Of a DNA stretch of 64,000 bases, positions 22,100-56,752 are shown one piece after another. The stretch lies in contig JAJFTZ010000057.1 of assembly GCA_021372675.1 (NCBI GenBank), forward strand, positions 22,633 through 86,632, read 5' to 3'. The notes beneath the pieces were generated by a model, which worked only from the letters and a program-made list of their open reading frames with translations, was not told the origin of the DNA and made no database searches. Both the position numbers and the translations under genes were made by a program. How positions within the stretch are numbered: the stretch's first letter is position 1; every line of letters begins with the position of its first letter. Source of the DNA: Eubacteriales bacterium (GTDB taxonomy: Bacteria; Bacillota; Clostridia; Christensenellales; CAG-138).

Positions 22100-22130
22100 A
22101 GTTGACCTCTTTCTTTCGTGTCGGCGGGGG

Positions 22131-24784: not shown

Positions 24785-25624
24785 TTACGGCTTTCTCGTG
24801 ACCTTGATGGCGATATCCACGCCGTCCGGGCGGTCTGACTGCTCCACCTCCACCGACATGCCCGCCTCGCGCAGTTGGTTGACGGCGGTGTTTACGGTGT
24901 TCATAAAAAGCCTGTAATCCTTCACGAGCCGTATCATGATGGGGCGGGGCTTCGCGCCGTCCCGCTTTTCGTCGTAAAGGCGGTTGAGCGTTTTTTCCAC
25001 ATACGCTTCGGTCTCCTTCACGGAAAGCCCCTTCTCGGCGATCTTTTTCACGGCGTCGAGCTGGTGCTTTTCCTCGCGCAGGCTTAAAAGCGCGCGCGCG
25101 TGGCGCTCGCTCAGGCCCGCTTCGACCATGGCGTCCTTCACGGCGGGGGGAAGCTTCAAAATGCGCAGCTTGTTGGCGATGGACGACTGGCTCTTGCCGA
25201 GTTTTTTGGCAAGCTCCTCCTGCGTGAGGTGGAAGGAGCTGAGAAGCTGGCTGTAGCACCCGGCCTCCTCGAGGTAGCTGAGCTCCTCGCGCTGGAGGTT
25301 TTCGATGAGCGCCATCATGGCGGAGGCCTCGTCCACCACGTCGTTTTGCACGATGCAGATCACCGTTTTCATGCCGAGGGTTTTCACCGCGCGAAGGCGG
25401 CGTTCGCCCGCCACGAGTTCGTACCCGCTTGGGACGGGGCGCACCACGAGCGGCTGAATAAGCCCCACCTGCGCGATGGAGTCCGCAAGCTCCTGAATAC
25501 CTTCCTCCACAAACGTGGCGCGCGGCTGGTTGGGGTTCGGCAGTATTTTTAAAACGTCGATCTCCTCCAGCCTCTTTTCCGGCTCGGGCTTTTTCGTATC
25601 CCTCAAAAAATCAAATACCGGCAT
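24785..25624 (-). CDS. noc: ParB-family nucleoid-occlusion-like protein (Noc-type paralogue)
   Basis: GERRLRAV CTP/ParB box, HTH TQEELAKKLGKSQSSIANKLRILKL, Noc-like C-terminus (FMNTVNTAVNQLREAGMSVEVE...IAIKVTRKP). Adjacent to rsmG. Confidence 0.65.
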   Translation of the reverse strand: MPVFDFLRDTKKPEPEKRLEEIDVLKILPNPNQPRATFVEEGIQELADSIAQVGLIQPLVVRPVPSGYELVAGERRLRAVKTLGMKTVICIVQNDVVDEASAMMALIENLQREELSYLEEAGCYSQLLSSFHLTQEELAKKLGKSQSSIANKLRILKLPPAVKDAMVEAGLSERHARALLSLREEKHQLDAVKKIAEKGLSVKETEAYVEKTLNRLYDEKRDGAKPRPIMIRLVKDYRLFMNTVNTAVNQLREAGMSVEVEQSDRPDGVDIAIKVTRKP

Positions 25625-25729
25625 GAACCTGGCCTCCTTACGATGAGTGTTTCGCTGTGAAACCGTATATTTCCTGCAACCGCCGCAAAAGCGGCGCGGA
25701 TTCGGCAAAAAAGGATTTTCTTCGCATCG

Positions 25730-26419
25730 CTACAGGGGTTTTTTCTTCATCACGCCGCTCGCGCGGGGATAATTTTCCGGCGTCGGCGCGAGCTTTGTGA
25801 CGAAAATCACGCGGCGTTCCCCCCACGCGGCGTCGAATTTAACGAGCTCCGCTTCCGCCCTTAAGAGGTGCAGCGCGTTTTTCGCGGAAAGAAGCTCCGA
25901 CTCCGCCTGCGGGCCCTTGTACATGAGCGACACGCCGCCTTCCTTCAAAAAAGGCACCGTAAGCTCCGTAAGGACCGAGGCCGGGGCCACCGCCCGCGAG
26001 AGCGCCGCGTCGAACCCCGCACGATAGCTTAAGCTCTTGCCCGCTTCCTCCGCGCGCGCGTGCACGCATTGGATGTTTAGGTTAAGCTCCTTGCACGCCG
26101 CCTCCAAAAAGCCGACGCGTTTTTGAAGCGCGTCCATGAGCGTAAAGCTTAAGTCCGGCCGCGCAACGGCGAGCGGTATGCCGGGGAAGCCCGCGCCCGT
26201 GCCCACGTCGATCACCCTCGCGTTTTTTTTGAGAAGGCTTTCGGGCAAAACGCTGTCCGCAAAGTGCTTTGAGGCGACCTCGGCGGGGTCGGTGATGGCC
26301 GTAAGGTTCATGCGCGCGTTCCAGTCTACGAGCATTTCGTAAAAAACGCAGAGCTTTCTTTGCCGCGCCTCGTCAAGCGAGGGGAGCGCCGCCCTTACGG
26401 CGTCGAAAATTTCGCTCAT
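25730..26419 (-). CDS. rsmG: 16S rRNA m7G methyltransferase RsmG (GidB)
   Basis: IDVGTGAGFPGIPLA SAM motif. 4-nt overlap with mnmG. Confidence 0.9.
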   Translation of the reverse strand: MSEIFDAVRAALPSLDEARQRKLCVFYEMLVDWNARMNLTAITDPAEVASKHFADSVLPESLLKKNARVIDVGTGAGFPGIPLAVARPDLSFTLMDALQKRVGFLEAACKELNLNIQCVHARAEEAGKSLSYRAGFDAALSRAVAPASVLTELTVPFLKEGGVSLMYKGPQAESELLSAKNALHLLRAEAELVKFDAAWGERRVIFVTKLAPTPENYPRASGVMKKKPL

Positions 26420-28338
26420 ACGCCCTCCGTACCCCGAGGCGCGGGCGTTTTCTCCGCCGCGCGCGCATCCTTTTTGAGCTGCACCAGAAGCACCGCGATA
26501 TCCGCGGGCGACACGCCCGAAACGCGCGACGCCTGTCCGATGTTTTTCGGGCGCAGCGCGGCGAGCTTTTGCCGCGCCTCAATGCGAAGCCCGCTCACGG
26601 AAAAATAGTCCATTTCCGCGGGCAAAAGCACCGTTTCCAGCTCCTCGAAGCGCTTTACCTGCTCCGCCTGTTTTTTGATATACCCCTCGTACCGCGCCGC
26701 GATTTCCACCTGCTCGCGCGCTTCGTCGCCGATCTCGGGCAAGCCCCGCCCGAGGCGCATTAGGTCGGTATACGAAACGCTCTCGCGCTTCAAAATATCG
26801 TAAAGCTTTAGCCCCGGTCGCAGCTCGCCCTCGCCCTTTTCCTCGAGCAGGGCCTTTAAAGCCTCGTCCGGCTTCGCGAACGCGCTAAGCGCCGCCACGG
26901 CGCGGTCGATCTCGTCGCGCTTTCGCATGAGCCTTTCGTACCGCGCGCCGCTTACAAGCCCCGTGCGCTTGGCAAGCTCCGTAAGCCTTAGATCCGCGTT
27001 ATCCTGCCGCAGCAAAAGCCTGTATTCCGCGCGCGAGGTCATCATGCGGTACGGCTCGTTGGTGCCCTTTACGGTGAGGTCGTCCACAAGCACGCCGACG
27101 TACGCGTCCGCCCGCGTCAAAACAAGCGGGGGTTCCCTTTTCAAATAGAGCGCGGCGTTCACGCCCGCGTACAGCCCTTGCGCCGCCGCCTCCTCGTACC
27201 CGGACGTGCCGTTGATCTGCCCCGCGAAGTAAAGCCCTTCGATCTCCTTATGCGAAAGTCCCTCGCCGAGCGTCTGCGGGTCGATGCAATCGTACTCGAT
27301 GGCGTACCCCGGGCGCATGATCTCGCAGCGCTCCATGCCGCGTATGGTGCGAAGCATCTTTACCTGCACGTCGAGCGGCAGCGAGGTGGACATCCCCTGC
27401 ACGTACATCTCGTCCGTGGAGCCGCCCTCCGGTTCCAAAAAAAGCTGGTGGCGCTCCTTATCCTTGAAGCGCGTGATCTTATCCTCGATCGAGGGGCAGT
27501 ACCGCGTGCCCGTGCCCTCGATAAGCCCGCCGTACATGGCCGAACGGTGGATGTTTTCTAAAATCACCCGGTGCGTCTCCGCGTTGGTATACGTTAAATA
27601 GCACGGCGTTTGCGCGCGGCTTAAAATCGCCGCAGCGCCCTTATTTAAAAACGAGAAGCAGGGCGGGGGAACATCCCCTTCCTGACGCTCCATTTTGTCA
27701 AGGTCGAGGCTCCGCCTGTGCACCCGCGCGGGCGTACCCGTTTTGAACCTTCGAAGCGGCACGCCAAGCTCCGTAAGCGACGCCGAAAGCGCGTTTGCGC
27801 CCAAAAACCCCGCAGGCCCGCTTTGCGAAACATGGTCGCCGATCAAAATGCGGCTTTTCAAATACACGCCCGCCGCCACTACGAGCGCGCGGCAAAGGTA
27901 CCTTATCCCGCCGCCCGCCACAACGCCCGCGACGCGCCCGTTATAAACGAGTATCCTCTCGCACTCGCCCTGCCGAAGCGTCAGGTTTTCTTCCCGCTCC
28001 AGCGCGCGCTTCATCCGCTCGTGGTAGCTCCGCTTGTCGATCTGCGCCCGAAGCGAATGCACCGCCGGGCCTTTCCCTGTATTGAGCATGCGTATCTGCA
28101 AAAACGTGTCGTCCGCCGCAAGCCCCATCTCGCCGCCCATCGCGTCGATCTCGCACACCAAATGCCCCTTGCTCGTGCCGCCGATCGCCGGGTTGCACGC
28201 CATGTGCGCCACCGAGTCGAGGTTCATCGTGAGGCAAAGCGTTTTTAACCCCATGCGCGAAAGCGCGAGCGCCGCCTCGCAGCCCGCGTGGCCCGCCCCT
28301 AAAACGATCGCATCATAGGCTCCCGCGTTAAAATCCAT
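26416..28338 (-). CDS. mnmG: tRNA uridine-5-carboxymethylaminomethyl modification enzyme MnmG (GidA)
   Basis: YDAIVLGAGHAGCEAA FAD motif, 640 aa, conserved synteny. Confidence 0.95.
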   Translation of the reverse strand: MDFNAGAYDAIVLGAGHAGCEAALALSRMGLKTLCLTMNLDSVAHMACNPAIGGTSKGHLVCEIDAMGGEMGLAADDTFLQIRMLNTGKGPAVHSLRAQIDKRSYHERMKRALEREENLTLRQGECERILVYNGRVAGVVAGGGIRYLCRALVVAAGVYLKSRILIGDHVSQSGPAGFLGANALSASLTELGVPLRRFKTGTPARVHRRSLDLDKMERQEGDVPPPCFSFLNKGAAAILSRAQTPCYLTYTNAETHRVILENIHRSAMYGGLIEGTGTRYCPSIEDKITRFKDKERHQLFLEPEGGSTDEMYVQGMSTSLPLDVQVKMLRTIRGMERCEIMRPGYAIEYDCIDPQTLGEGLSHKEIEGLYFAGQINGTSGYEEAAAQGLYAGVNAALYLKREPPLVLTRADAYVGVLVDDLTVKGTNEPYRMMTSRAEYRLLLRQDNADLRLTELAKRTGLVSGARYERLMRKRDEIDRAVAALSAFAKPDEALKALLEEKGEGELRPGLKLYDILKRESVSYTDLMRLGRGLPEIGDEAREQVEIAARYEGYIKKQAEQVKRFEELETVLLPAEMDYFSVSGLRIEARQKLAALRPKNIGQASRVSGVSPADIAVLLVQLKKDARAAEKTPAPRGTEGV

Positions 28339-28490: not shown

Positions 28491-29804
28491 TTATTTTCCC
28501 ACGCAGAACCGGGAAAAAATGCGGTCGAGCACCGCCGAATCCACGGTTTCGCCCGTGATCTCGCCCAAGGCGTGCAGCGCCTCGCGAAGGTCCGTGGCGA
28601 TAAGCTCCGCGTCCTTCACAAGAAGCGCGCTTTCAAGCGCGGCTTGCGCGCGCAGCAACGCGTCGATATGCCTCGCGTTCGTCACGAGCGCGCTCTCCGC
28701 CTCCGGCGCGAGCCGGTTGGCGACTTCCTTTTTCAACGCCTCCACGCCTTCGCCCGTGAGCGAGCTCACGCTTGCGGAGGGTATGCCGTACGCCTCTTGG
28801 AGCGCCGCCGCCGTGAGGCGCGCGGGGAGATCGCCCTTGCAAACGACCGCCATGCGGGGCTTGTCCGCGGTGGAAAGAAGAAGCTCCCTGTCGCTTTCGT
28901 CGAGCGCCTCCGCGCCGTCGAACGCCAGCAGCAGAAAATCCGCCTGCTCCGCCGCGCTTTTTGCCCGCGATACGCCCATGCGCTCCGCCTCGTCGCCGCT
29001 TTCGCGCATGCCCGCCGTATCCGTAAGCCTCACCGGCACGTCGAAAAACAGAGTTTCCTCCTCGAGCACGTCGCGCGTGGTGCCCGCGATAGGCGTTACG
29101 ATGGCGCGGTCGTACCCCAAAAGCGCGTTAAGCAGCGACGATTTGCCCGCGTTGGGACGGCCCAGCAGCACCACCCTCGCGCCCTCGCGCAAAAACCTCT
29201 GCTTTAACCCGCTTTGCGCAAGCGCGCGCAGTTCGGCCGCGGCGTTTTCAAGCGTTTGGGGAAGCGCTGAAAACACGTCCTCCTCCAGCTCCTCGGGGTA
29301 ATCTATGGCGGCGTCCACGCCGCTCAGCGCGTCGAGAAGCGCGTGCTCCACGGCCTTCACCGCGCGGCTCAGGCTACCTTGCAGCTGCTCGAGCGCGAGC
29401 GCCGCGCCGCGCTTCGAAGTCGCGGCAATCATATCCTGCACGGCTTCCGACTGCGCAAGGTCCAGCTTCCCGTTTAAAAACGCGCGCCGCGTGAACTCGC
29501 CCGGCTCCGCCGCGCGCGCGCAGCGCGAAAGCAAGGTGAGCACCCGGCTTAAAACCGCGCGCCCGCCGTGCGTATATAGCTCAGCCATGTCCTCGCCCGT
29601 GTAGCTTTTTGGCGCCTCGAAATAGGCGGCCATCGCTTCGTCCACCTTAATTTCTCCGTCCATCACGAAGCCGTGCCTCATGCGGGCATGCTCCACGGGT
29701 ACGCTGAATATTTTCCCTATCGTTTCCTTCGCTTCCGCTCCGCTGATGCGGATCACGGCGAGCGCGCCGCCCGCGGGGGTGGCGAGCGCGAAAATGGTAT
29801 CCAC
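28491..29804 (-). CDS. mnmE: tRNA modification GTPase MnmE (TrmE)
   Basis: DTIFALATP start region, G1 GRPNAGKSSLLN, DTAG, C-terminal FCVGK. GTG 29804 sits behind GGAGG. Confidence 0.93.
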   Translation of the reverse strand: MDTIFALATPAGGALAVIRISGAEAKETIGKIFSVPVEHARMRHGFVMDGEIKVDEAMAAYFEAPKSYTGEDMAELYTHGGRAVLSRVLTLLSRCARAAEPGEFTRRAFLNGKLDLAQSEAVQDMIAATSKRGAALALEQLQGSLSRAVKAVEHALLDALSGVDAAIDYPEELEEDVFSALPQTLENAAAELRALAQSGLKQRFLREGARVVLLGRPNAGKSSLLNALLGYDRAIVTPIAGTTRDVLEEETLFFDVPVRLTDTAGMRESGDEAERMGVSRAKSAAEQADFLLLAFDGAEALDESDRELLLSTADKPRMAVVCKGDLPARLTAAALQEAYGIPSASVSSLTGEGVEALKKEVANRLAPEAESALVTNARHIDALLRAQAALESALLVKDAELIATDLREALHALGEITGETVDSAVLDRIFSRFCVGK

Positions 29805-29934
29805 GGCTGTTTCCTCCTCGGCGGGAAATGGGGGATATTGTGGGGATACTGCTATTGTATCCCAAAGATGGGAGGGATGTAAACGGCGGCGCGTTTTTAC
29901 GCAGTTCGTTCTCCGTTTGCCTCCCCAAAACCAC

Positions 29935-30034
29935 AAAAGGCGCCCGTTGTTTGGGCGCCTTTTCGCGAAAAGTAAGCTTTTATTATTTTACCCTAAAGTT
30001 TCTTTTGCTTCTTTTCTTTTCAAAGAAAAGAAGC
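29935..30034 (-). repeat. Rep-C full module copy c (terminator hairpin + spacer + palindrome) after jag
   Basis: AAAAGGCGCCCGTTGTTTGGGCGCCTTTT ... GCTTCTTTTCTTTTCAAAGAAAAGAAGC. Confidence 0.8.
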
Positions 30035-33296: not shown

Positions 33297-33317
33297 TTAT
33301 CCACAAAGTTATTCACA
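33297..33317 (+). promoter_or_regulatory. Two DnaA boxes upstream of dnaA (TTATCCACA, TTATTCACA)
   Basis: Exact consensus 9-mer at 33297-33305 and an 8/9 match at 33309-33317, about 40 nt before the dnaA ATG. Confidence 0.8.
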
Positions 33318-33355
33318 AAATGGGTGGTTTATCAACACTTGGGGGTTTTTGGGGC

Positions 33356-34687
33356 ATGCAGTCGGCGCAGTACGTTTGGGAAAAATCGATCGTTGAGTTA
33401 AAAAAACTGATGACAACGCCGAGCTTCGACGCTTGGATATCGCCCATCGAGCCGCTTTGCATCCGCGACAATGCCCTCGTATTGCTGGCGCAAAACGGCA
33501 TTTCCAAAAATACGCTCATCAACCTTTACACGGCTACCGTCACCAACGCCGTCAACAAGGCAAACGATACGGGCCTTACCATCTCCTTCGTGGACCCCTC
33601 CGAGGCGGGCGAATACCGCGCGGAGCAGGCGCCTAATTCCGCATTTTCCCCCTCCGCTTCGCGTGAAACGCAGCTTAACCCCAAATATACCTTCGACTCA
33701 TTCGTCATCGGCAATTCCAACAGCTTTGCGCACGCGGCCGCAAAAGCCGTGGCCGATAACCCTTCCTCGGCCTACAACCCGCTTTTCATCTACGGCGGCG
33801 TGGGCCTTGGTAAAACGCACCTCATGCACGCCATCGGCAACCATATCCGCGAAATAAAACCGAAATCCAAGATCATCTACGTGACGAGCGAATCGTTTAT
33901 GAACGAGATGATCCTTGCCATACAGGAAAATAAAAACGCGCAGTTCCGCAACAAATACAGGAGCGTGGACGTGCTTATGGTGGACGATATCCAATTCATC
34001 TCCACCCGCGTCGGTTTGCAGGAGGAGTTTTTCAACACCTTCAACGCGCTCCATACCAACGGCAAGCAGATTATTTTAAGCTCCGATAAGCCCCCCATGG
34101 AGATGCAAACGCTCGAGGTGCGCCTTAGGTCGCGCTTCGAGGGCGGTCTCATCGCCGATATACAGCCGCCCGATATCGAGACCCGCGCGGCCATTTTACG
34201 TAAAAAGGTGGCGCTTGAAGATATCTGCATCGACGAACGCGTTATCACCTTCATCGCGGAAAAGGTAAATTCCAATATCCGTCAGCTCGAGGGCTCGCTC
34301 AACCGCGTGATCGCCTATTCCAACCTCACCAAGCGTCCCATCGACGCCGCCCTCGCGGACACCGCCCTGCGCGATATTTTGCCGGGCTTTGAAAACAGGA
34401 AGATCACCATTGACCTCATCCAGCAGGTGGTGGCGGATTATTATTCCATCAGCCTTGACAGCCTCCTTTCGCAGCGCCGCACCATGGAGATCACCTACCC
34501 GCGCCAGATCGCCATGTACCTCTGCAAGGAAATGACGGAATCCTCCTTAAAAAGCATTGGCCGCAGCTTCGGCGGGCGCGACCATACCACCGTGATAAGC
34601 GCCTGCAAAAAGATCGCTTCCGATATAGAAAAGGACGCAAAGCTGCCCCTTATTATGGAGGACTTGGAAAAGCGTATCAAAAAGTGA
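33356..34687 (+). CDS. dnaA: Chromosomal replication initiator DnaA
   Basis: Walker A GGVGLGKTHL, VDDIQF, C-terminal ITYPRQIAMYL DNA-binding signature. DnaA boxes flank the gene. Confidence 0.97.
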   Translation: MQSAQYVWEKSIVELKKLMTTPSFDAWISPIEPLCIRDNALVLLAQNGISKNTLINLYTATVTNAVNKANDTGLTISFVDPSEAGEYRAEQAPNSAFSPSASRETQLNPKYTFDSFVIGNSNSFAHAAAKAVADNPSSAYNPLFIYGGVGLGKTHLMHAIGNHIREIKPKSKIIYVTSESFMNEMILAIQENKNAQFRNKYRSVDVLMVDDIQFISTRVGLQEEFFNTFNALHTNGKQIILSSDKPPMEMQTLEVRLRSRFEGGLIADIQPPDIETRAAILRKKVALEDICIDERVITFIAEKVNSNIRQLEGSLNRVIAYSNLTKRPIDAALADTALRDILPGFENRKITIDLIQQVVADYYSISLDSLLSQRRTMEITYPRQIAMYLCKEMTESSLKSIGRSFGGRDHTTVISACKKIASDIEKDAKLPLIMEDLEKRIKK

Positions 34688-34691
34688 TGCA

Positions 34692-34925
34692 TTTTCCACA
34701 GGGCATTCACATTTTGTGGAAAAGGCCCGTGGAAATGTGTAGTATAATTTGTGGAAAATGTGTGCTTCGTTGCCACTGTTGAAAAGCCCTTTTTTAGACC
34801 TTGTTTTTCCACAGGCTTATCCACGGCAAAAAGCCTTTTAAAATTTGAAGTTTCGGGGCTTATCCACAGTATCCAGCCCCCTACTATAACTACTACGATT
34901 TATACTATATAACAAATACCAAAAA
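34692..34925 (+). other. oriC core in the dnaA-dnaN spacer: DnaA-box cluster, GC cluster, DnaA-trio-like repeats, AT-rich DUE
   Basis: Boxes: TTTTCCACA 34692, TGTGGAAAA 34715, CGTGGAAAT 34728, TGTGGAAAA 34750, TTTTCCACA 34805, TTATCCACG 34817, TTATCCACA 34860. Then AGCCCC, then CTACTATAACTACTACGA (34881-34898), then an AT-rich run to ~34925. Confidence 0.85.
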
Positions 34926-34943
34926 GCGAATCGGAGGGATCGT

Positions 34944-36050
34944 ATGAAATTTTATATTTCCACCGAAGACTTGAACGCGGGTATCTCCATAATATCCAAG
35001 GCGTTGCCGTCCCGCACCGCCATGCCCATACTCGAGGGCATCTACGCGCAGGCGCAGGGAAATAACCTTCTTTTAAGATGTAACGACCTTTCCCTGCAAA
35101 TAGAAACGCTTCTTCCCGCCGCCGTGGAAACAGAGGGCTCCCTCGTTTTTCCCGGCAGGCTTTTCTCCGACCTCGCGCGCCGTCAACCCGATGAGCAGAC
35201 CTTGATCGAAACCGATAAAACCACCGTTACCATGCAAAGCGGGCGCGCCCGCGCCACCATGCAGGCGTTCGACGCCGCCGAATACCATTCCATGCCCTTC
35301 TCACGGCAGGAATTTTTTGTGAACATCAAAAAAAGCACGCTCAAGAGCATGATCAAGCAGACGATCTTCGCCACCGCGCAGGATGAAACAAAGCCCATCC
35401 TCACGGGCGTCCTCCTCGAGATCACCGAGGGGCTTCTTTCCATGGTGGCGCTCGACGGCTACCGCCTCGCACTTCGCCGCGAAGCGGCCGACGGCGTGAT
35501 CGGCGAGCAAAAGGTGGTCGTCCCCGCCAAATCCCTGCTCGAAATAAGCCGCATCCTCGATGATTCGGACGATATTATCAAGGTCGTATTCTCGAGGACC
35601 CACCTTCTTATAGACCTCGATCATACTAAAATTACCACGCGCCTCCTCGAGGGCGAATTCATCAAGTATAAGCAAATCCTCCCGGAAAATCATACCACTT
35701 GCGTGCGCGTGAACCGCCAGGAGCTTTTCGACAGCATCGAGCGCGTTTCCCTCATTGCCCGCGAAGGAAAATCAAACCTCGTAAAATTCTCCTTCTCCGG
35801 CGATAATTTGGCCATTTCCGCCAACTCCGAAGCCGGTAAAAGCAATGAGGAGCTTACAGTTTCCGTGATGGGAAGCGAGCTGGAGATCGCCTTTAACGCA
35901 AAGTACGTGAGCGACGTTTTAAAATCGCTCGACGACGACGAGGTGTTTCTTGAAATGAACAGCAGCATCAGCCCCTGCGTCGTAAAACCCGTGCAGGGCG
36001 ACCGTTTTTATTTTCTCATCCTTCCCGTAAGGCTGTTTTCGGGGCTATAA
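34944..36050 (+). CDS. dnaN: DNA polymerase III beta sliding clamp
   Basis: 368 aa, follows dnaA, clamp-like three-domain length and an MPILEGI... N-terminus. Confidence 0.93.
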   Translation: MKFYISTEDLNAGISIISKALPSRTAMPILEGIYAQAQGNNLLLRCNDLSLQIETLLPAAVETEGSLVFPGRLFSDLARRQPDEQTLIETDKTTVTMQSGRARATMQAFDAAEYHSMPFSRQEFFVNIKKSTLKSMIKQTIFATAQDETKPILTGVLLEITEGLLSMVALDGYRLALRREAADGVIGEQKVVVPAKSLLEISRILDDSDDIIKVVFSRTHLLIDLDHTKITTRLLEGEFIKYKQILPENHTTCVRVNRQELFDSIERVSLIAREGKSNLVKFSFSGDNLAISANSEAGKSNEELTVSVMGSELEIAFNAKYVSDVLKSLDDDEVFLEMNSSISPCVVKPVQGDRFYFLILPVRLFSGL

Positions 36051-36059
36051 GGAACGGAT

Positions 36060-36155
36060 GTTACTTTTTTTGAAAGAAAAGTAACCAAAAGAACTTATAG
36101 TTTAAATAGAAATATGCTTTTCACGAAAAGGCGCCCAAAACTACGGGCGCCTTTT
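36060..36155 (+). repeat. Rep-C full module copy d after dnaN
   Basis: GTTACTTTTTTTGAAAGAAAAGTAACCAAAAGAAC ... AAAAGGCGCCCAAAACTACGGGCGCCTTTT. Confidence 0.85.
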
Positions 36156-36183
36156 ATGAAGGAAAAAAGAGAACGAAAAAAGG

Positions 36184-36936
36184 TTATCCGTCGAACTCGC
36201 CTTCGTACTCCGAAACGGGCAGGGTTTTGAGGTAAGCGATCACGCCGCGGACGATGCCGTCGGCAAGCTTTTCCTGATATGCGGGATCAAGCAGCTTTTC
36301 CTCCTCCGCGGCGTTGGATAAAAAGCCGCATTCCACCAGGACGGAGGGGGAGGGGCTTTCGCGCAGCATGAAAAAATCCGCCTTGCTCGCCTTGCGGCGG
36401 CTTTGTTCGGTGGAATCGCACACGGCGTCCACGACGAGCTGCGCGAGCTTTTGGCCCTCGTCGGAGCCGGGCATGAAAAAGGCCATGGCGCCGTGCACGG
36501 TGGTATCCTTGAATTTGTTCATATGGATGCTTACCACGACGGTAACGCCGGGTAGGTTCATAATTTTTTTGCGCGCCTGCATATCGGACTTTTTGCCGGA
36601 GGCGAGCGCGTTTTCGTCGGTGCGGGTCATTATGACGTCAACGCCGCTTTTCTTGAGCTTTTCCTCCACGAGCTTCGCGACCGAAAGGTTTAAACCCGCC
36701 TCGGCCACCTTGCTTTTGGTGCCCACCGCGCCGCCGTCCACGCCGCCGTGCCCCGCATCCACCACCACGGTGAAAACGCGGCCCTCCCGCGCGCCGATGC
36801 TCGCGCCGCGCGCGGAAAAAGAAAACCCCTCCAACGACGCGCGGCCGAAAAAGGCGCCGAATATCAATACAAGAAGCAGCACATAAGCCGTATGAGCGGC
36901 GCGCCTAAGCGGCGCGCGGAACAGTCCGCCCGTCAT
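36184..36936 (-). CDS. N-acetylmuramoyl-L-alanine amidase (Amidase_3, CwlD-like)
   Basis: VVVDAGHGGVDGGAVG zinc-amidase motif and an N-terminal TM/signal anchor. ATG 36936 preferred over 37047. Confidence 0.75.
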   Translation of the reverse strand: MTGGLFRAPLRRAAHTAYVLLLVLIFGAFFGRASLEGFSFSARGASIGAREGRVFTVVVDAGHGGVDGGAVGTKSKVAEAGLNLSVAKLVEEKLKKSGVDVIMTRTDENALASGKKSDMQARKKIMNLPGVTVVVSIHMNKFKDTTVHGAMAFFMPGSDEGQKLAQLVVDAVCDSTEQSRRKASKADFFMLRESPSPSVLVECGFLSNAAEEEKLLDPAYQEKLADGIVRGVIAYLKTLPVSEYEGEFDG

Positions 36937-37102
36937 CCCCGTTCCCCCTTCAGCAAAACTGCGGGTAACAAAGATATATTCCGCATGTGTGCGCGTTATA
37001 CGGCCGGGCTTCGCGCGACGTAAAAGGAATTTTTTCGTATTTTGCATAATCGTGTCGAATTATACTTGACGAGCGTGTATATGCAGGTGAATAAAGGGAG
37101 AT

Positions 37103-37184
37103 ATATCCACAGCATCCACAGAGTTATCCACAGGGGAAAGACAAGCTTACTCGCCGTTTTTTCAAATTTTCCACAACGTTCACA
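37103..37184 (+). promoter_or_regulatory. Third DnaA-box cluster (4-5 co-oriented boxes)
   Basis: ATATCCACA 37103, GCATCCACA 37112, TTATCCACA 37124, TTTTCCACA 37167, ACGTTCACA 37176. Upstream of the amidase gene. Confidence 0.65.
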
Positions 37185-43518: not shown

Positions 43519-44343
43519 TTGGAAAAAGAATGCACGCATGACTGCTCCTCGTGCGCGAGCAACTGCTCGGAGCGCGTGAGAGAAAAGAACGATTTTCTGG
43601 AAACACCGCATGAGCTGAGCCACATCGGAAAGGTGATCGGCGTGATGAGCGGCAAGGGCGGCGTGGGCAAATCGCTCGTGACCTCCATGCTCGCCGTGCT
43701 CGCGCGGCGGCGGGGGAAGCGCGTCGCCATTTTGGACGCGGATATCACCGGCCCCTCCATCCCCAAGTCGTTCGGCCTGCGCGGCCACGCCGTGGCCGAC
43801 GAAACAGGGCTTTACCCGGTTTTGAGCGCAACGGGCGTGGAGGTGATGTCTTTAAACCTGCTCGCCGAAAACGAAACCGACCCCGTGGTGTGGCGCGGGC
43901 CGGTGCTCGCGGGCGCCGTGAAGCAGTTTTGGACGGACGTTATATGGGGCGAGGTGGACGTGATGTTCATCGACATGCCGCCGGGCACGGGCGACGTGCC
44001 GCTGACGGTGTTTCAAAGCATCCCATTAAACGGCGTGGTCGTGGTCGCCACCCCGCAGGAGCTCGTGGGCATGATCGTGGAAAAGGCGCTCAACATGGCG
44101 AACCTGATGCGCGTCCCCGTTCTGGGGCTTGTGGAAAACATGAGCTACGCCGTGTGCCCCGGTTGCGGGAAGCGCTTTTCTCTGTTCGGCGAAAGCCGCA
44201 TCGATGAGGCGGCCGCGCGGTTTCACGTGAAAAGGGTTGCGAAGCTCCCCGTCGACCCAAGGCTCGCGGCGGCGGTGGACGGCGGGGCCGTCGAGGCGTT
44301 CGAGGGCGATTGGCTCAACGACCTTCTCGCGGATATCCTGTAA
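43519..44343 (+). CDS. mrp: Mrp/ApbC/NBP35-family Fe-S cluster carrier ATPase
   Basis: N-terminal Cys-rich CTHDCSSCASNC, deviant Walker A SGKGGVGKS, CPGCG motif. Confidence 0.85.
   Translation: MEKECTHDCSSCASNCSERVREKNDFLETPHELSHIGKVIGVMSGKGGVGKSLVTSMLAVLARRRGKRVAILDADITGPSIPKSFGLRGHAVADETGLYPVLSATGVEVMSLNLLAENETDPVVWRGPVLAGAVKQFWTDVIWGEVDVMFIDMPPGTGDVPLTVFQSIPLNGVVVVATPQELVGMIVEKALNMANLMRVPVLGLVENMSYAVCPGCGKRFSLFGESRIDEAAARFHVKRVAKLPVDPRLAAAVDGGAVEAFEGDWLNDLLADIL
44219..44234. other. Degenerate parS-like site inside mrp
   Basis: GGTTTCACGTGAAAAG has a perfect 12-bp palindromic core TTTCACGTGAAA and matches the parS consensus at 13/16. Confidence 0.35.
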
Positions 44344-49746: not shown

Positions 49747-49855
49747 GATGCGGAAACCGGCCGTCAGGAGGGGACAAGCCGCGCGCCGTGAAACCATTTT
49801 TTACGCGTGCGCATATGATGAACTGACGGAACATAGATTGTTGGAAAGGGCTTTT

Positions 49856-50935
49856 ATGGCAAAACGCATCCTACTCACCGGCGGCGGCAGCGCGGGGCAC
49901 GTGACCCCCAACCTCGCCCTTATCCCAAGGCTCAAGGCCGAGGGCTTCGAGATACACTATGTGGGCACCGCGGACGGAAAGGAGCATAAGCTCGTCGCCT
50001 CGCGCGAGGACGTTACCTATCACGTGATCAGCGCGGGCAAGCTGCGGCGCTACTTTTCCCTTCAAAATTTTATCGATCCGTTTCGCACGTTAAAGGGCCT
50101 TGTTCAGGCCCGCCGCATCCAAAAGAGCGTGGACCCCGACGTGGTATTTTCTAAGGGCGGCTTCGTATCGCTGCCGGTGGTGCTCGCGGCGCGCGCAAAA
50201 ACGCCCGTCGTGACCCACGAGTCCGACTATACGCCCGGCCTCGCCAACCGCATCATCGCGATGCGCGCGGATAAAATATGCGTCACCTTTGAGGATACTT
50301 TAAAATTCACGCGCGCGAAGGGCGTGCACACCGGTACGCCCATACGCCCGGAGCTTTACGGCGGCAGCAAGGAGGAGGGGCTTAAAATTTTGGGCTTCTC
50401 GGGCGAAAAGCCCGTGCTTCTCGCGATGGGCGGCAGTCAGGGCGCGCAGGCGATCAACGCGGCGCTCCGCGCGGCGCTCCCGGAGCTTTGCAAGCGCTTC
50501 GACGTGGCGCATCTGTGCGGCGAAGGCAAGCGCGACGAGTCGATCCGCATGGATGGCTACGTCCAGTGCGAATATATGTCGGAGGAGCTGCCGCATGTGC
50601 TTGCGGCGGCCGACCTTGTGGTTTCCCGCGCGGGCGCGAATTCCATCTTCGAATTCCTCGCGCTCGCCAAGCCCGCCCTTTTGATACCGCTGCCGCAAAG
50701 CAAGGTAAGCCGTGGCGACCAGATCGTAAACGCGGGTTATTTTCAGAAAAAAGGCTACGCGGCGGTGCTTCCGCAGGAGAAACTCACCCCCGAAACGCTG
50801 ATCGCGGCGGTAGACTGTCTTTTCAACGATAGGGGCAAGTATGCCGACACCATGCGGGACGAAAAGCTTAACGACGGCACCGAAGGCGTACTCCGCGTAA
50901 TCCGCGAGGCGGCGGAGCGCGGCAGGAAAAAATAA
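49856..50935 (+). CDS. murG: UDP-GlcNAc:undecaprenyl-PP-MurNAc-pentapeptide GlcNAc transferase
   Basis: LLTGGGSAGHVTPNLAL and GGSQGA motifs, GT28 length. Confidence 0.9.
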   Translation: MAKRILLTGGGSAGHVTPNLALIPRLKAEGFEIHYVGTADGKEHKLVASREDVTYHVISAGKLRRYFSLQNFIDPFRTLKGLVQARRIQKSVDPDVVFSKGGFVSLPVVLAARAKTPVVTHESDYTPGLANRIIAMRADKICVTFEDTLKFTRAKGVHTGTPIRPELYGGSKEEGLKILGFSGEKPVLLAMGGSQGAQAINAALRAALPELCKRFDVAHLCGEGKRDESIRMDGYVQCEYMSEELPHVLAAADLVVSRAGANSIFEFLALAKPALLIPLPQSKVSRGDQIVNAGYFQKKGYAAVLPQEKLTPETLIAAVDCLFNDRGKYADTMRDEKLNDGTEGVLRVIREAAERGRKK

Positions 50936-50943
50936 GCATGCGT

Positions 50944-51019
50944 TGTTTCACATGAAACAATGTATAGACGAAATGTTTCATGTGAAACAATATGTGGATA
51001 GAATGTTTCATGTGAAACA
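50944..51019. other. Array of three parS-like sites at 30-bp spacing
   Basis: TGTTTCACATGAAACA (50944), TGTTTCATGTGAAACA (50974), TGTTTCATGTGAAACA (51004). Each matches TGTTNCACGTGAAACA at 15/16. Confidence 0.8.
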
Positions 51020-52612
51020 ATGTATAGCGGAAACAAACGGGAGGATACGCGCATCAAACAGGAGCAGGCCCTTTCGAGGGAGATCGTAAAACGGCTTCTC
51101 GAGCAGCCCAACGGCCCCGAAAAGCTCATGGACGACGCCGACACGGCGTTCGACGCTGCGTGGGCCCTTTATCTGGAGGGCTTCGCGCCTGCGGGCGCCT
51201 TTTTGGCGCGCTGCGCGAAAAAGGCCGCGTTCCGCGCGCGCATGGAGGACAGGCTCCTCTTTGAGCGTGAGGACTTCTTAAAAACGCTTTCCTCCGAAAA
51301 CCCCAAGATGCGCAAAAACGCCGCGCGGCTCATGGGGGAATTGCGGATAAGCGGAGCCGCGGAGCTGATCGTTGCGGCGCTCGAAAAGGAACCCCAGCGC
51401 TTCGTGCGGCCGTCGCTGATCCTCGCGCTCGGGAAAACGGGCGGCGCTGCGGCGGAAACGGCGCTTAAAGCCTATGAAGTGCCCGGGGCGAAGGACGAAA
51501 CCGAAAAAAAACATTTCGAGGAGGAGCTTACGGCGCTTTTCACCGCGCGCGCGGCGCTCACGGCACCCAAACGCCACGCGTTCACGGGCTTAAAAAAACC
51601 GTATCTCATTGAGCTTCGCGCGCCGGACAGGCTATCCGAGGCGCTGGTGGCCGAGCTAAATGCCCTTGGCTTTTCGGAGGCCCGCGCGGTAAGCCCATCG
51701 GGCGTGCGGCTCACGACGGACGACATTTCAGGCTTGATGCAGGCGCGCTGCTTCCACGAGCTTTTGTTTGTGGTATCCGACGACGCGGCGCTTGCGCCAA
51801 AGAGCGTCGCGTTCAAGGCGAAGCCCTTCCTCGAGGAGCTTATGATCAACGCGCATGAGGGGGAACGGCCCTTCGGCTTCCGCGTGGAGGTGCGAGCGCA
51901 ATCGGAGGAGCGCGCGGCGCTCGTAAAGGAAATTGCGCTTCTACTGAACGGCGAGACCCTCGCAAACGCGCCGGGCAGCTACGAGGCGGAGCTTCGCGCG
52001 GAGCAAAAGCCAAACGGCGGCGCGCGGCTAACCGTAAAGCTTTCGTCCATACCCGACGAGCGCTTTTCCTACCGCTTGGGGGCCATCCCCGCGTCGATGC
52101 ACCCGGCCACGGCGGCGGCCGTGCTCCGCTACGCCGCCGCTTACTTAAAGGAAGGCTCTCGCGTGTTGGACCCGTTCTGCGGCAGCGGCACGCTTTTGAT
52201 CGAGCGCGAAAAGCTCACAGCATGCGAAGCGCTCACGGGCGTGGATATCGCGCACGCGGCCATCGATGTGGCGCGCCAAAACGCGGCGGCGGCGGGGAGC
52301 AGCGCCAGGTTTATCGTTAACGATTGCCTGCGCTTTGAGGCAAACCGCAAATACGACGAGGTGATCTCGAACCTCCCCTTCGGCAACCGCGTGGGGACGC
52401 ACGCGCACAACGAGCGGCTGTACGCGGAATTTATCGCGCGGCTTCCGCTGTGGCTCAAGCCAAACGGCGTGGCGCTTTTGTACACCATGGAGTTCACGCT
52501 TTTAAAAAAGCTTCTTCGCGAAACGCCCGCTTTAAGGCTCGTGGCGCAGGAGCGCACCGAGGCAGGCGGGCTCATGCCCGGTATTTTCCTATTGCAAAAC
52601 CGCCCGGTGTGA
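51020..52612 (+). CDS. HEAT-repeat / THUMP-like / UPF0020 class-I SAM-dependent (RNA) methyltransferase fusion
   Basis: HEAT-like PKMRKNAARLMGEL..LIVAALEKEP..RPSLILALGKTG. SAM motif VLDPFCGSGTLLIE and catalytic NLPFGNR. Start codon uncertain because ATG 51020 lies inside the parS repeat unit and has no RBS. Confidence 0.6.
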   Translation: MYSGNKREDTRIKQEQALSREIVKRLLEQPNGPEKLMDDADTAFDAAWALYLEGFAPAGAFLARCAKKAAFRARMEDRLLFEREDFLKTLSSENPKMRKNAARLMGELRISGAAELIVAALEKEPQRFVRPSLILALGKTGGAAAETALKAYEVPGAKDETEKKHFEEELTALFTARAALTAPKRHAFTGLKKPYLIELRAPDRLSEALVAELNALGFSEARAVSPSGVRLTTDDISGLMQARCFHELLFVVSDDAALAPKSVAFKAKPFLEELMINAHEGERPFGFRVEVRAQSEERAALVKEIALLLNGETLANAPGSYEAELRAEQKPNGGARLTVKLSSIPDERFSYRLGAIPASMHPATAAAVLRYAAAYLKEGSRVLDPFCGSGTLLIEREKLTACEALTGVDIAHAAIDVARQNAAAAGSSARFIVNDCLRFEANRKYDEVISNLPFGNRVGTHAHNERLYAEFIARLPLWLKPNGVALLYTMEFTLLKKLLRETPALRLVAQERTEAGGLMPGIFLLQNRPV

Positions 52613-52631: not shown

Positions 52632-52994
52632 ATGTATTTTGAAAAGGACTGGCTCCTAAGGCAGATACGCGTAACGGCGCAGATGCTGGCGCGGCTCGCG
52701 TTCAACAAGGACACGCCGTTTTACGAGATGGAAAACAGGGAGGCGCAAAGCGCGAGCGACCTCGTTCACGAAAAGATCATGCGGCTTTTGGACGAGGGAC
52801 GCTTCAACGAGGCGGAGGATATGCTGTTTGACGCGCTCGAGGAGCACGGCATTTCCTGCCTTCGCGTGGCGACCGATTTTTACGCCCGCCTCAACGAGTT
52901 CGACGATACGGTGCTCGAACAAAACGGCTTCGAGCGCGAGGAGATCGCGCAGGGGCTGGAGGATGTTAAGGCCATGTTCGGGCTATTCTTCTAG
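52632..52994 (+). CDS. Hypothetical small helical protein (possibly DUF6483-like)
   Basis: 120-aa ORF 19 nt after the methyltransferase, behind a GGAGAGGAG RBS. Family assignment is from memory only. Confidence 0.4.
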   Translation: MYFEKDWLLRQIRVTAQMLARLAFNKDTPFYEMENREAQSASDLVHEKIMRLLDEGRFNEAEDMLFDALEEHGISCLRVATDFYARLNEFDDTVLEQNGFEREEIAQGLEDVKAMFGLFF

Positions 52995-53096
52995 GTAAGG
53001 GATGAAACCATATATACGCCGTTAAAGTAGATTGTGCTTTTCGACCGGAATGCTATATAATGGAAAGGCGCGAACGGCGTCGCTTGCAACAGATAT

Positions 53097-53879
53097 ATGG
53101 AGGAATATACGTTGGCTAAAATCATCGCGATTGCAAACCAGAAGGGCGGCGTGGGCAAAACCACCACGACCGTCAACCTTTCCACATGCGTGGCGCAGGC
53201 GGGCAAGCGCGTGCTCTGCGTGGATATCGACCCGCAGGGGAACACGACGAGCGGCCTCGGCGTAGATAAGGACGCCCCCCATCACAGCGTATACGACGTG
53301 CTCATCAACGGTGTTTTGGCCGCGGACGCGTGCGTGGATACGGTGGTGAAGGGCCTTAAATTGCTTCCGTCGCGCAAGGAACTTTCGGGGGCGGAGGTGG
53401 AGCTTGTGGGGTTATTGGCGCGCGAGCAGGTGCTGAAACGCGCGCTGAGTCAAGTCAGCGAAGCATTCGACTATGTGTTTATCGACTGCCCGCCGTCGCT
53501 CGGGCTTCTCACCATCAACGCGCTCACGGCGGCGAACACGCTTTTAGCGCCCATCCAATGCGAGTACTACGCCCTCGAAGGGCTTTCAGACCTTATGAAC
53601 ACCGTAAAGCTCGTGCGCGCGCATCTAAATCCCTCGCTCGAGGTGGAGGGCGTCGTTTTGACGATGTTCGACGCGCGCACCAACCTGAGCGCGCAGGTGG
53701 TGACCGAGGTCAAAAAATTCTTCAAGAACAAGGTGTACAAAACCATTATCCCGCGCTCCGTGCGGCTGAGCGAGGCGCCGAGCTTCGGGCTTCCCATCAG
53801 CTTATACGACGAAAAATGCTCCGGCACCAAGGCATACCGCGCGCTTGCGAAGGAGCTTTTAGAAAAAAGCGAGCAATAA
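53097..53879 (+). CDS. soj: Chromosome partitioning ATPase ParA/Soj
   Basis: Deviant Walker A NQKGGVGKTTT, DCPPSLG, 260 aa. Confidence 0.93.
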   Translation: MEEYTLAKIIAIANQKGGVGKTTTTVNLSTCVAQAGKRVLCVDIDPQGNTTSGLGVDKDAPHHSVYDVLINGVLAADACVDTVVKGLKLLPSRKELSGAEVELVGLLAREQVLKRALSQVSEAFDYVFIDCPPSLGLLTINALTAANTLLAPIQCEYYALEGLSDLMNTVKLVRAHLNPSLEVEGVVLTMFDARTNLSAQVVTEVKKFFKNKVYKTIIPRSVRLSEAPSFGLPISLYDEKCSGTKAYRALAKELLEKSEQ

Positions 53880-53913: not shown

Positions 53914-54780
53914 ATGGCCGTCAAAAAGGGACTCGGCAAGGGGCTGGACGCGCTCCTTGGGGATTATGCCGCCGCACCGCCCGAGGGCGTGAAGCAGGTG
54001 AACGTACACGATATCGACACCAACCTCGAGCAGCCCCGCAAGAGCTTCGACGAGGAAAAACTCAGGGAGCTTGCGGCGTCGATCTCCGTGCACGGCGTGG
54101 TGCAGCCTATTCTGGTGCGCCAAAACGGGGCGCGCTTTACCATTGTGGCGGGGGAAAGGCGTTTTCGCGCCGCGCGCCTCGCGGGGCTCGAGCTCGTGCC
54201 CGTGGTGGTGCGCGACATGGAGGATTCGGCGGTGCTCGAGGTGGCGCTTGTGGAAAACCTCCAGCGCGAGGACTTAAACCCCATCGAGGAAGCCGCGGGC
54301 ATTCGCTTTTTGATGCAGCAGCACGACCTCACGCAGGAGGAGGTTTCCTCGAGGCTTGGGAAGAGCCGTCCGGCCATCGCCAACGCGCTTCGCCTATTGA
54401 ACCTGCCGGAAAGCGTGCAATCGCTTTTGCGCGAGGGGAAGCTCCTTCCCGGCCACGCGCGCGCGCTCGTCGTGATCAAGGAAGAAGGCGTGCAGGAGGC
54501 GCTCGCCAACAGGATCGTCGCGGAGGGCTTATCGGCTCGTCAGGCGGAGGAGCAGGCGAGGCTGGCGGCGGAAAAGAGCCTTGAAGAAGGCGAAAAGCGC
54601 GCGCCGCGCAAAGAAAAGCTGAACGCCGACGCGGACCTCGCGGAGGCGGAAGCGCGCTTGCGCGAAAAGCTTGCCACCAAGGTGAGCATTTTAGGCTCAC
54701 AGAAAAGCGGCAAGCTCATCGTCGAATACTATTCCAAAGAGGATTTGAACGCGCTTTACGACCTGCTGATGCAGGAATGA
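53914..54780 (+). CDS. spo0J: Chromosome partitioning protein ParB/Spo0J
   Basis: GERRFRAA box, HTH TQEEVSSRLGKSRPAIANALRLLNL, C-terminal dimerisation region. Confidence 0.93.
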   Translation: MAVKKGLGKGLDALLGDYAAAPPEGVKQVNVHDIDTNLEQPRKSFDEEKLRELAASISVHGVVQPILVRQNGARFTIVAGERRFRAARLAGLELVPVVVRDMEDSAVLEVALVENLQREDLNPIEEAAGIRFLMQQHDLTQEEVSSRLGKSRPAIANALRLLNLPESVQSLLREGKLLPGHARALVVIKEEGVQEALANRIVAEGLSARQAEEQARLAAEKSLEEGEKRAPRKEKLNADADLAEAEARLREKLATKVSILGSQKSGKLIVEYYSKEDLNALYDLLMQE

Positions 54781-55979: not shown

Positions 55980-56752
55980 TAAAGGGCGCGGGCGACCTCG
56001 CCACCGGCGTGGCGCTAAGGCTATACCGCGCAAACTTCGCCGTGGTGGCGACGGAGATCAAAGAACCCACGGCCATCCGCCGCACCGTCAGTATTTCCCG
56101 GGCAATAACGGAAGGAACCGCCACCGTGGAGGACGTGACGGGCGTGCGCGCCGTGGATGCAAACGACGCGTTACGCATCGTTTCGGAGGGGAACATCGCC
56201 GTGCTCGCGGATGAAAGGGCGGCGTGCTTACAAACGCTTAAGCCCGTTGCGCTCGTGGACGCCATCCTCGCCAAGCGCAATCTGGGTACGAGGCTAGAGG
56301 ACGCGCCCATCGTGGTGGCGCTCGGGCCGGGTTTTACCGCGGGGGTTGATTGCCACGCGGCGGTGGAGACCATGCGCGGGCACGACCTCGGCCGCGTATA
56401 CTACGAGGGCAGCCCCTATCCCGATACGAAGGAACCCGGCAGCATCGACGGCTTCACGTTCGAGCGTGTGATGCATACGCCTAAGGCGGGCGTATTCCGT
56501 GTTGTGCGCGAGATCGGCGATACCGTGGCGGCGGGAGAGATTGTAGCTTATGTGGACGGGGAGCCGGTAATGGCCAAGCTGAACGGCGTTTTGCGCGGCC
56601 TGCTGCCCGACGGTATTTACGCCGCGCAGGGTATGAAGTGCGGGGACGTAGACCCGCGCTGTGAAAGGCGGCATTGCTTTACGGTTTCCGATAAAGCGCG
56701 CGCCTTGGGCGGCGCGGTGCTCGAGGCCATTTTGCATTTTTCCGCGCAATAA
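55952..56752 (+). CDS. yqeB: Selenium-dependent molybdenum hydroxylase system protein YqeB (XdhC-related)
   Basis: VVIKGAGDLATGVALRLYRANF Rossmann-like start. Overlaps yqeC by 28 nt. Confidence 0.7.
   Translation: MGERHPLVVIKGAGDLATGVALRLYRANFAVVATEIKEPTAIRRTVSISRAITEGTATVEDVTGVRAVDANDALRIVSEGNIAVLADERAACLQTLKPVALVDAILAKRNLGTRLEDAPIVVALGPGFTAGVDCHAAVETMRGHDLGRVYYEGSPYPDTKEPGSIDGFTFERVMHTPKAGVFRVVREIGDTVAAGEIVAYVDGEPVMAKLNGVLRGLLPDGIYAAQGMKCGDVDPRCERRHCFTVSDKARALGGAVLEAILHFSAQ

Follow-up and report, generated by a model that had tools for sequence, protein, structure and literature searches.

How did three parS-like palindromes come to stand at an exact interval of 30 bp, all with the same unusual centre, and what do they serve? 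The question is raised by a stretch of 64,000 nucleotides (hereafter the window) from a metagenome-assembled genome (MAG) of a Eubacteriales bacterium (contig JAJFTZ010000057.1), in which the three sites lie between murG and a methyltransferase gene, upstream of parA (soj) and parB (spo0J). The array is in all likelihood part of the chromosomal centromere, comprising three predicted loading sites for ParB (Spo0J) at about 14-18 kb from the replication origin, oriC. That ParB binds these variant sites, and that clamp loading with cytidine triphosphate (CTP) and recruitment of SMC take place at the array, we infer. The sites and the units that contain them are as follows.

50944-50959: parS site 1, TGTTTCACATGAAACA, CA centre; the first site after murG, orthologous to the first post-murG site of relatives
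50974-50989: parS site 2, TGTTTCATGTGAAACA, TG centre; the middle site, specific to the window
51004-51019: parS site 3, TGTTTCATGTGAAACA, TG centre; orthologous to the site that in relatives stands nearest the methyltransferase ribosome-binding site
50944-51033, plus strand: three 30-bp units in head-to-tail order, each made up of a 16-bp parS and a 14-bp spacer (TRF and repeat search)

All three sites agree with the consensus TGTTNCACGTGAAACA at 15/16 positions, the arms being perfect and the sole mismatch falling on the central CpG (TGTTTCAYRTGAAACA, with its CA or TG centre), and the distance from site to site is exactly 30 bp, twice. TRF reports a period of 30 with 2.8 copies, 79% matches and 0 indels, and a second repeat finder agrees on the 30-bp unit (2.8-3 copies, no indels). 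Units 1 and 3 are 87% identical, units 1 and 2 are 73% identical, and the spacers of units 1 and 3 coincide at 12/14 positions. The search of the window for TGTTNCACGTGAAACA with at most 3 mismatches returned 9 strand-matches (both strands) against 0.76 expected, a number reached by 0/100 shuffles, and the identical three-site array is found in two assembly records (Logan SRR15035646 and GCA_039680475.1). These results bear out a preliminary description of the same DNA, which had reported the palindromes at 50944, 50974 and 51004 in exact 30-bp phase, the 15/16 match that always deviates at the central CpG, one shared asymmetric variant flipped once (one CA and two TG), head-to-tail units of which 1 and 3 are near-identical, and a negligible role for chance. 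It had also conceded that its reading would fall if the unit proved to be a dispersed repeat. The spacer motif has no occurrence in the window outside the array at 0-1 mismatch; the 30-bp unit is therefore not a dispersed repeat.

The sequence features by which a chromosomal parS is known are present, namely an inverted repeat, proximity to the origin, a cognate ParB, a ParA partner, and sites kept at orthologous positions. The neighbourhood of the array is given below.

33297-37175: replication origin region (dnaA, dnaN, DnaA-box clusters, GC skew)
33320-34687: dnaA
34944-36050: dnaN
33297-33337, 34692-34868 and 37103-37175: DnaA-box clusters
49748-50935, plus strand: murG (GT28 glycosyltransferase), its stop codon 8 bp before site 1
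51053-52612, plus strand (mechanical open reading frame (ORF) from ATG 51020): HEAT-repeat and UPF0020/RlmL-like S-adenosylmethionine methyltransferase
52632-52994, plus strand: DUF6483 small protein
53097-53879, plus strand: parA/soj
53914-54780, plus strand: parB/spo0J

Since dnaA, dnaN and oriC lie only about 14-18 kb to the left of the array, the replicon is a chromosome; the cumulative GC-skew minimum falls at about 36 kb of the window. The array occupies the murG-methyltransferase gap and heads a co-directional block of methyltransferase, DUF6483, parA and parB, an arrangement that the preliminary description had recognized correctly, the DUF6483 gene being its small ORF. As an observation on the origin itself, the three DnaA-box clusters are separate (one upstream of dnaA, one in the dnaA-dnaN interval and one downstream of an amidase gene), which suggests a bipartite or tripartite oriC.

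The best solved relatives of the ParB encoded here are B. subtilis Spo0J (6sdk, E = 1.5e-55, residues 24-214), Thermus Spo0J and Caulobacter ParB, and its domains are ParB_N, HTH_ParB and ParB_C, the last for C-terminal dimerisation. It contains an N-terminal LGKGL, the CTP-binding motif GERRFRAA (residue 80), ENLQRE(DL) (residue 114) and the helix-turn-helix (HTH) segment GKSRPAIANALRLL followed by GKLLPGHAR, and its residues at the positions equivalent to Caulobacter R173, N178, G201 and R204 are of the parS type (GKSR...N...G-HAR). Arg and Gly at R173 and G201 (Caulobacter numbering) specify parS over the Noc-binding site (NBS), the positions and roles of these residues being documented (PMC7383237). 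Judged by its motifs, the ParB of the window is canonical and of the Spo0J type. Its partner ParA matches AAA_31/CbiA and has a deviant Walker A, KGGVGKT.

By established ParABS biology, dimers of ParB would recognise each 16-bp parS through the HTH, take up CTP at the GERRxR motif and form closed sliding clamps that spread onto the flanking DNA. The partition complex would then stimulate ParA and load SMC, and the three sites within 90 bp would act as one high-flux loading point.

Several considerations weigh against this assignment. The scan covers 64 kb of a MAG, and the rest of the genome may hold stronger sites with a CG centre. One degenerate word with a CG core is present in the window itself (GGTTTCACGTGAAAAG, 44219-44234, inside an Mrp/NUBPL-type ATPase gene). 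It matches the parS core exactly over 13 bp, but its arms carry 3 mismatches and neither of two relatives (L003 and L005, below) conserves it; as a conserved extra parS it is rejected, being probably non-functional. In P. aeruginosa an intact CACGTG core contributes to the affinity of ParB (PMC4368675), and by analogy every site of the array may be sub-optimal. Finally, the sequence does not separate duplication from conversion as the route to the middle site.

Turnover of sites among relatives

The history of the array was read from six genomes that share the methyltransferase-DUF6483-parA-parB block: the window and five relatives (L003, L005, L209, L210 and L211), whose syntenic loci were found via methyltransferase homologs. 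The region compared was 11.5-17.5 kb in each relative and 64 kb in the window. Throughout the clade, parS is confined to two gaps, with the following centres and spacings.

Window: murG-methyltransferase gap CA, TG, TG (30, 30 bp); DUF6483-parA gap, none
L003: murG-methyltransferase gap CG, TG (59 bp); DUF6483-parA gap TG, TG, TG (231, 42 bp)
L005: murG-methyltransferase gap CA, TG (46 bp); DUF6483-parA gap CA, CA (27 bp)
L209: murG-methyltransferase gap CA, TG (46 bp); DUF6483-parA gap CA, CA (27 bp)
L210: murG-methyltransferase gap CA, TG (46 bp); DUF6483-parA gap CA, CA (26 bp)
L211: murG-methyltransferase gap CG, a single site; DUF6483-parA gap CG, CG (38 bp)

The arms are perfect (0 mismatches) in 24/24 sites of the clade while the surrounding spacers diverge freely, a contrast which indicates ongoing purifying selection on the parS arms. 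In the alignment, sites 1 and 3 of the window are orthologous to the pair that L003 and L005 each hold in the murG-methyltransferase gap. The ortholog of site 1 has a CG centre in L003 and L211 and a CA centre in L005, L209 and L210, and that of site 3 has TG in L003, L005, L209 and L210. None of the five relatives holds a site between the two outer ones. The outer sites stand 60 bp apart in the window and 59 bp apart in L003, and we therefore read the middle site as a gain specific to the window. Units 1 and 3 have similar spacers, which also resemble the one past the last site of L003; this points to local duplication or conversion of a module made of parS and its spacer.

By this comparison, the ancestor had a pair of sites in the murG-methyltransferase gap, to which the lineage of the window added the middle site by duplication or conversion of this module, whence the exact 30-bp period; the same lineage also lost the parA-proximal sites that its relatives retain. 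The preliminary description had proposed aligning the orthologous intervals to see whether the number of units varies, and it does (1-3 sites), as does the spacing. Since relatives vary in both, the period is not a conserved requirement, and as far as the alignments can tell the 30-bp phasing is a by-product of local duplication or conversion at the level of the species. Helical phasing was considered and set aside: 30 bp corresponds to about 2.86 turns (10.5 bp per turn assumed), the 26-59 bp spacings of the relatives have no common phase, and we see no evidence in these sequences for a face-of-helix constraint on the spacing. The same comparison bears on the DnaA box that the preliminary description had noted in unit 2. 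The word is real (CTATCCACA, an 8/9 match on the minus strand at 50993-51001, within the spacer); elements controlled by DnaA usually hold several TTATCCACA-type 9-mers at a conserved position, and the array has one box only. Since the 8/9 match is single and none of the five relatives has it in the orthologous gap, it is probably due to chance.

In more distant relatives (L006-L008) and in 80 metagenomic parB loci, CG-centred doublets and triplets with 26-46 bp spacing lie upstream of parA. By this comparison, tight clustering of parS beside parAB is the rule in the order, while number and spacing are fluid. How centromere regions expand was posed as an open question by Tran et al. (PMC5815017); in the six genomes compared here, parS clusters are seen to gain and lose sites, via local duplication or conversion of a module, within about 3 kb.

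The second gap retains traces of what the window has lost, in the form of two features.

53000-53009: probable decayed parS half-site GGATGAAACC, in the DUF6483-parA gap, where relatives hold 2-3 intact parS
53051-53061, plus strand: -10-like element TGCTATATAAT, a putative parA-parB promoter by sequence comparison only

The -10-like element adjoins GGATGAAACC and is kept in L003/L004, L005, L209, L210 and L211. The probable true start of parA is TTG 53112, after the GGAGG at 53099-53103, instead of ATG 53097; the NCBI call for ParA in L002 has 255 amino acids. The methyltransferase likewise appears to start elsewhere than the mechanical ORF. Its likely start is ATC 51053, 8 nt past the GGAGG at 51040-51044, and a GGAGG with an ATC 6-8 nt on is kept in 6/6 genomes of the clade (window 51039-51055; L003 7937-7952; L005 7995-8009; L209; L210; L211). 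Gene callers are inconsistent here, with proteins of 493-530 amino acids, and the stretch of L003 that runs from the in-frame stop to the conserved N-terminal block (LS.E.VKR.LEQPNGPEKLM) lacks ATG, GTG and TTG alike. From these alignments, the methyltransferase probably starts at the non-canonical ATC codon.

This arrangement allows for a second use of the array that is compatible with a centromere, in which ParB bound there would repress or roadblock transcription of methyltransferase-DUF6483(-parAB), a form of autoregulation. With 20 bp between the end of site 3 and the methyltransferase ribosome-binding site, an operator role is plausible; the array takes up the whole 100-bp gap, in the relatives too a parS stands 15-25 nt ahead of this GGAGG, and ParB-mediated silencing beside parS is documented in other species (PMC4368675). 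Against it, a consensus scan found no sigma-70-like promoter on the plus strand of the gap, only minus-strand matches with nothing to transcribe, and parA-parB have their own conserved -10-like element, without an adjoining parS in the window. We regard the operator as a real but lesser possibility.

The CA/TG centre

The frequency of such centres was taken from a survey of 185,579 species, each represented by a single genome, for runs of three parS cores 16-46 bp apart, which yielded at least 120 loci. The centres in the arrays listed are CG in 383 cases, CA in 9, TG in 4 and TA in 2, so that non-CG centres make up about 4% of 398 sites. Only two of the matches listed consist wholly of variant sites.

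L009, Peptococcaceae MAG, 1195-1288: CA, TG, TG centres at 39 bp
L050, Saccharibacteria, 4531-4655: CA, CA, TA, TA centres, including the doubly mutated TGTTTCATATGAAACA

In the clade, four genomes have variant sites only across the regions compared (the window, L005, L209 and L210), and all changes of the centre are transitions at the central CpG. Because every site of L211 and one site of L003 have a CG centre, CG is, by comparison of these sequences, ancestral and CA/TG derived within the clade. The exact variant 16-mers were not found in the literature searched.

Two causes for the change were considered. Co-evolution of ParB with the CA/TG centre is rejected on the evidence of L211, which shares GKSRPAIANALRLL and GKLLPGHAR and has CG sites only; the ParB of the variant clade shares a Leu two residues before the G201-equivalent (GKLL[P/A]GHAR), and variant sites occur with other types of ParB, as in L165, L204, L187 and L205, which have Ser at that position. 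Methylation and deamination, CpG loss or restriction avoidance find no support as the driver, the observed/expected ratio of CpG being 1.40; the ratios of ACGT (0.74) and CACGTG (0.52) are in the usual range for palindromes in the window. Beside these, and as a matter apart from the array, two words are scarce in the whole window, GTCGAC (4 against 44 expected, ratio 0.09) and CTAG (18 against 95, ratio 0.19). The strong depletion of GTCGAC suggests a history of SalI-type restriction-modification.

The changed centres could also be the mark of weak or decaying pseudo-parS sites, in which the central mutation cripples the binding of ParB and the functional centromere consists of CG-centred sites outside the window. 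The importance of core integrity in P. aeruginosa (PMC4368675), the rarity of non-CG centres in arrays elsewhere and the prior loss of the parA-proximal sites, of which the half-site at 53000-53009 is a remnant, would fit this account. Arms without mismatch in every site of six genomes with diverging spacers do not, nor do the four genomes in which variant sites are the only ones, nor the gain of a new variant site by the window. Functional decay is accordingly an unlikely cause of the change, and pseudo-sites are an improbable explanation of the array as a whole. The most economical reading of these sequences, and one in keeping with a working centromere, is that this ParB tolerates a single C-to-T transition in one half-site, since the arms stay perfect and the DNA-reading residues of ParB are unchanged.

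CA precedes TG in 7/7 arrays that mix both, from about 4 independent lineages (p roughly 0.06), and the order TG before CA was not seen in the seven.

Window: 50944-51019
L005: 7915-7976
L209: 4918-4979
L210: 4833-4894
L009: 1195-1288
L112: ~2867-3010
L165: ~4533-4620

With the CA site before the TG site, each of these arrays has its variant halves turned inward and its canonical halves outward. This asymmetry might be functional, parS having shifted to a half-canonical, half-variant form (TGTTTCAC / TGTTTCAT) in the clade and independently in a few others, an idea to which we would give little weight. If true, the inward variant halves could tune or bias the loading or release of ParB clamps, or couple them to control of the downstream operon, and several weakened tandem sites might replace one strong site. 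The clade in any event offers natural variants with which the central base pair could be examined, having transitions at the CpG and constant arms and ParB reading residues; a comparison of CG, CA/TG and TA centres would show the share of the central pair in ParB nucleation and CTP-dependent clamp closure.

Other binders, RNA and plasmid origin

The window encodes one further ParB-like protein, on the other side of oriC in an mnmE-mnmG-rsmG-noc cluster, and has NBS sites of its own.

24785-25708, minus strand: Noc-like ParB paralog
25730-26419: rsmG
26416-28338: mnmG
28491-29936: mnmE
12673-12686: perfect NBS, ATTTCCCGGGAAAT
10884-10897 and 56093-56106: NBS with 1 mismatch

It could be supposed that the array is bound by this paralog, by the divergently encoded HTH_1/LysR regulator just past parB or by some other palindrome-binding factor. 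The best matches of the paralog in the PDB are Noc proteins, it scores 310.7 bits against TIGR04285 (cut-off 315), and it has the exact Noc quartet Q/K/K/R; these residues (Q173/K179/K184/R201) switch specificity to NBS (PMC7383237). The arms of the array match parS exactly, including the G at position 2 and the A at position 7 that discriminate parS from NBS, and the ATTTCCCGGGAAAT-type sites lie elsewhere in the window. Another binder is thus very improbable. Because a Noc-type paralog and NBS sites exist beside ParB and parS, the organism is, on sequence grounds, one in which Noc-NBS and ParB-parS are distinct systems, the array being part of ParB-parS. As observations on the paralog and its cluster, the full Q/K/K/R quartet occurs here in a MAG of the Clostridia type, outside Bacilli, and the classical rsmG-noc-soj-spo0J cluster is split, with soj-spo0J about 19 kb right of dnaA.

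An element acting at the level of RNA, a long hairpin that would terminate, process or stabilise the murG/methyltransferase messenger RNA, is suggested by the predicted fold of 50930-51060 (-43.6 kcal/mol, z = -7.2 against shuffles). Such folding is expected automatically from any tandem palindromes; the gap has no U-tract and no plus-strand terminator, and relatives with other spacing or a single site cannot form an equal structure. A known RNA family was rejected, as Rfam returned only sub-threshold, noise-like matches to microRNA hairpins. We consider the hairpin highly unlikely as the reason for the array.

A horizontally acquired, plasmid-type iterated centromere, which the direct 30-bp iterations of a protein-binding palindrome had brought to mind in the preliminary description, is hardly credible and largely refuted by synteny: the dnaA/dnaN context is chromosomal and syntenic across the order, ParB is of the Spo0J type, the outer sites are vertically inherited, the period is unconserved, and the sole plasmid match, a partial one of 49 bp at 81.5% identity, gave no ground for a plasmid relationship.

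Apart from these systems, the long ORF 20687-22177 on the minus strand contains a strong coding tandem repeat (21662-21991; periods 18, 33 and 99 bp, TRF score up to 385).

Tight arrays and known systems

The preliminary description had taken single, dispersed parS sites for the norm in Firmicutes and the triplet for unusual, and here the survey disagrees with it. At least 120 species in many phyla carry parS triplets at 16-46 bp spacing, and clustering is the norm in the literature: PMC8357415, citing Livny 2007, treats scattered parS as a peculiarity of Bacilli, with most bacteria clustering their sites, and PMC5815017 and PMC10197239 likewise give clustering as the norm. With triplets so widespread and clustered parS the rule in print, the plasmid-like or unusual reading is left unsupported. 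Among the 120 matches listed, 52 are exactly equal-spaced, two of them at 30/30 (L021 and L095), and parB is within the fetched 8-kb locus in 67, at a median distance of about 1 kb, so that the array typically stands just upstream of parA. The 80 titled loci among these matches include 27 of Firmicutes type (Clostridia, Lachnospiraceae, Christensenellaceae, Bacilli, Streptococcus), 17 from Collinsella and 15 from Streptomyces-type actinomycetes; others come from Flavobacterium, Acidobacteriota, Planctomycetes, Alphaproteobacteria and Saccharibacteria. Three of the larger arrays are these.

L051, Lachnospiraceae, 1015-1353: 8 parS copies at 46-47 bp
L049, Clostridiales MAG, 942-1048: 5 parS copies at 23 bp
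L028, Streptomyces albospinus, 1297-1483: 6 parS copies, mostly at 29 bp

Equal-spaced tight chromosomal arrays are thus widespread, which corrects an expectation centred on B. subtilis. As an observation on one genus, most species of Collinsella sampled have three CG-centred parS spaced 39/39 bp exactly and lying some 1 kb from parB (L016, L018, L022, L023, L027, L029, L033, L038, L041, L047, L052, L053, L059, L064, L077, L078 and others). This period appears conserved in the genus, unlike that of the clade of the window, and hints at a spacing constraint there.

The array resembles the Spo0J-parS system of B. subtilis (TGTTNCACGTGAAACA) in its 16-bp inverted repeat with identical arms, in a homologous ParB with the same CTP and HTH motifs, in its proximity to the origin, in its ParA/Soj partner, and in the presence of a Noc paralog with NBS alongside. 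It differs from that system in its centre, CA/TG instead of CG, and in its layout: in B. subtilis the sites are spread across hundreds of kb, one of them inside spo0J, whereas the window has three in 90 bp, all intergenic, and its soj-spo0J stand apart from rsmG-noc, across oriC. With the clustered chromosomal parS of Caulobacter (PMC5815017), P. aeruginosa (parS1-4, PMC4368675), Corynebacterium, Myxococcus and Streptomyces it shares several sites beside parAB near the origin, a number of sites that turns over between relatives, and new sites of the kind best tolerated beside a native cluster. Those clusters are described at the scale of kilobases (5-40 kb in most bacteria, PMC8357415), in contrast to the 30-bp period here, and the window adds a concrete route of expansion in the putative local duplication or conversion of parS with its spacer.

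Closer still are the tight arrays of the survey (3 x 39 bp in Collinsella; 3 x 30 bp in the Clostridia MAG loci L021 and L095), which likewise have at least three parS at a fixed short period, with parB in the 8-kb stretch in about half of the loci listed and the array typically just upstream of parA. The very CA, TG, TG centres of the window recur in L009, although CG prevails among the matches listed (383/398 sites), and the recurrence of the 39-bp period across Collinsella has no counterpart in the clade of the window. The F plasmid sopC, with 10 functional 43-bp repeats and a SopB site in each (PMC7205306), is similar in its head-to-tail units of fixed period, each with one palindromic site for a ParB-family protein. 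It differs in type of replicon, ParB subfamily and site sequence, and plasmid arrays are made of defined functional repeat units; the array of the window has three copies only, is not carried on a plasmid or served by a plasmid-type partition protein, and has a period with which its relatives dispense. Set among these systems, the array is the chromosomal centromere already expected beside parAB, and its modest interest lies in the variant centre and the visible route of duplication.

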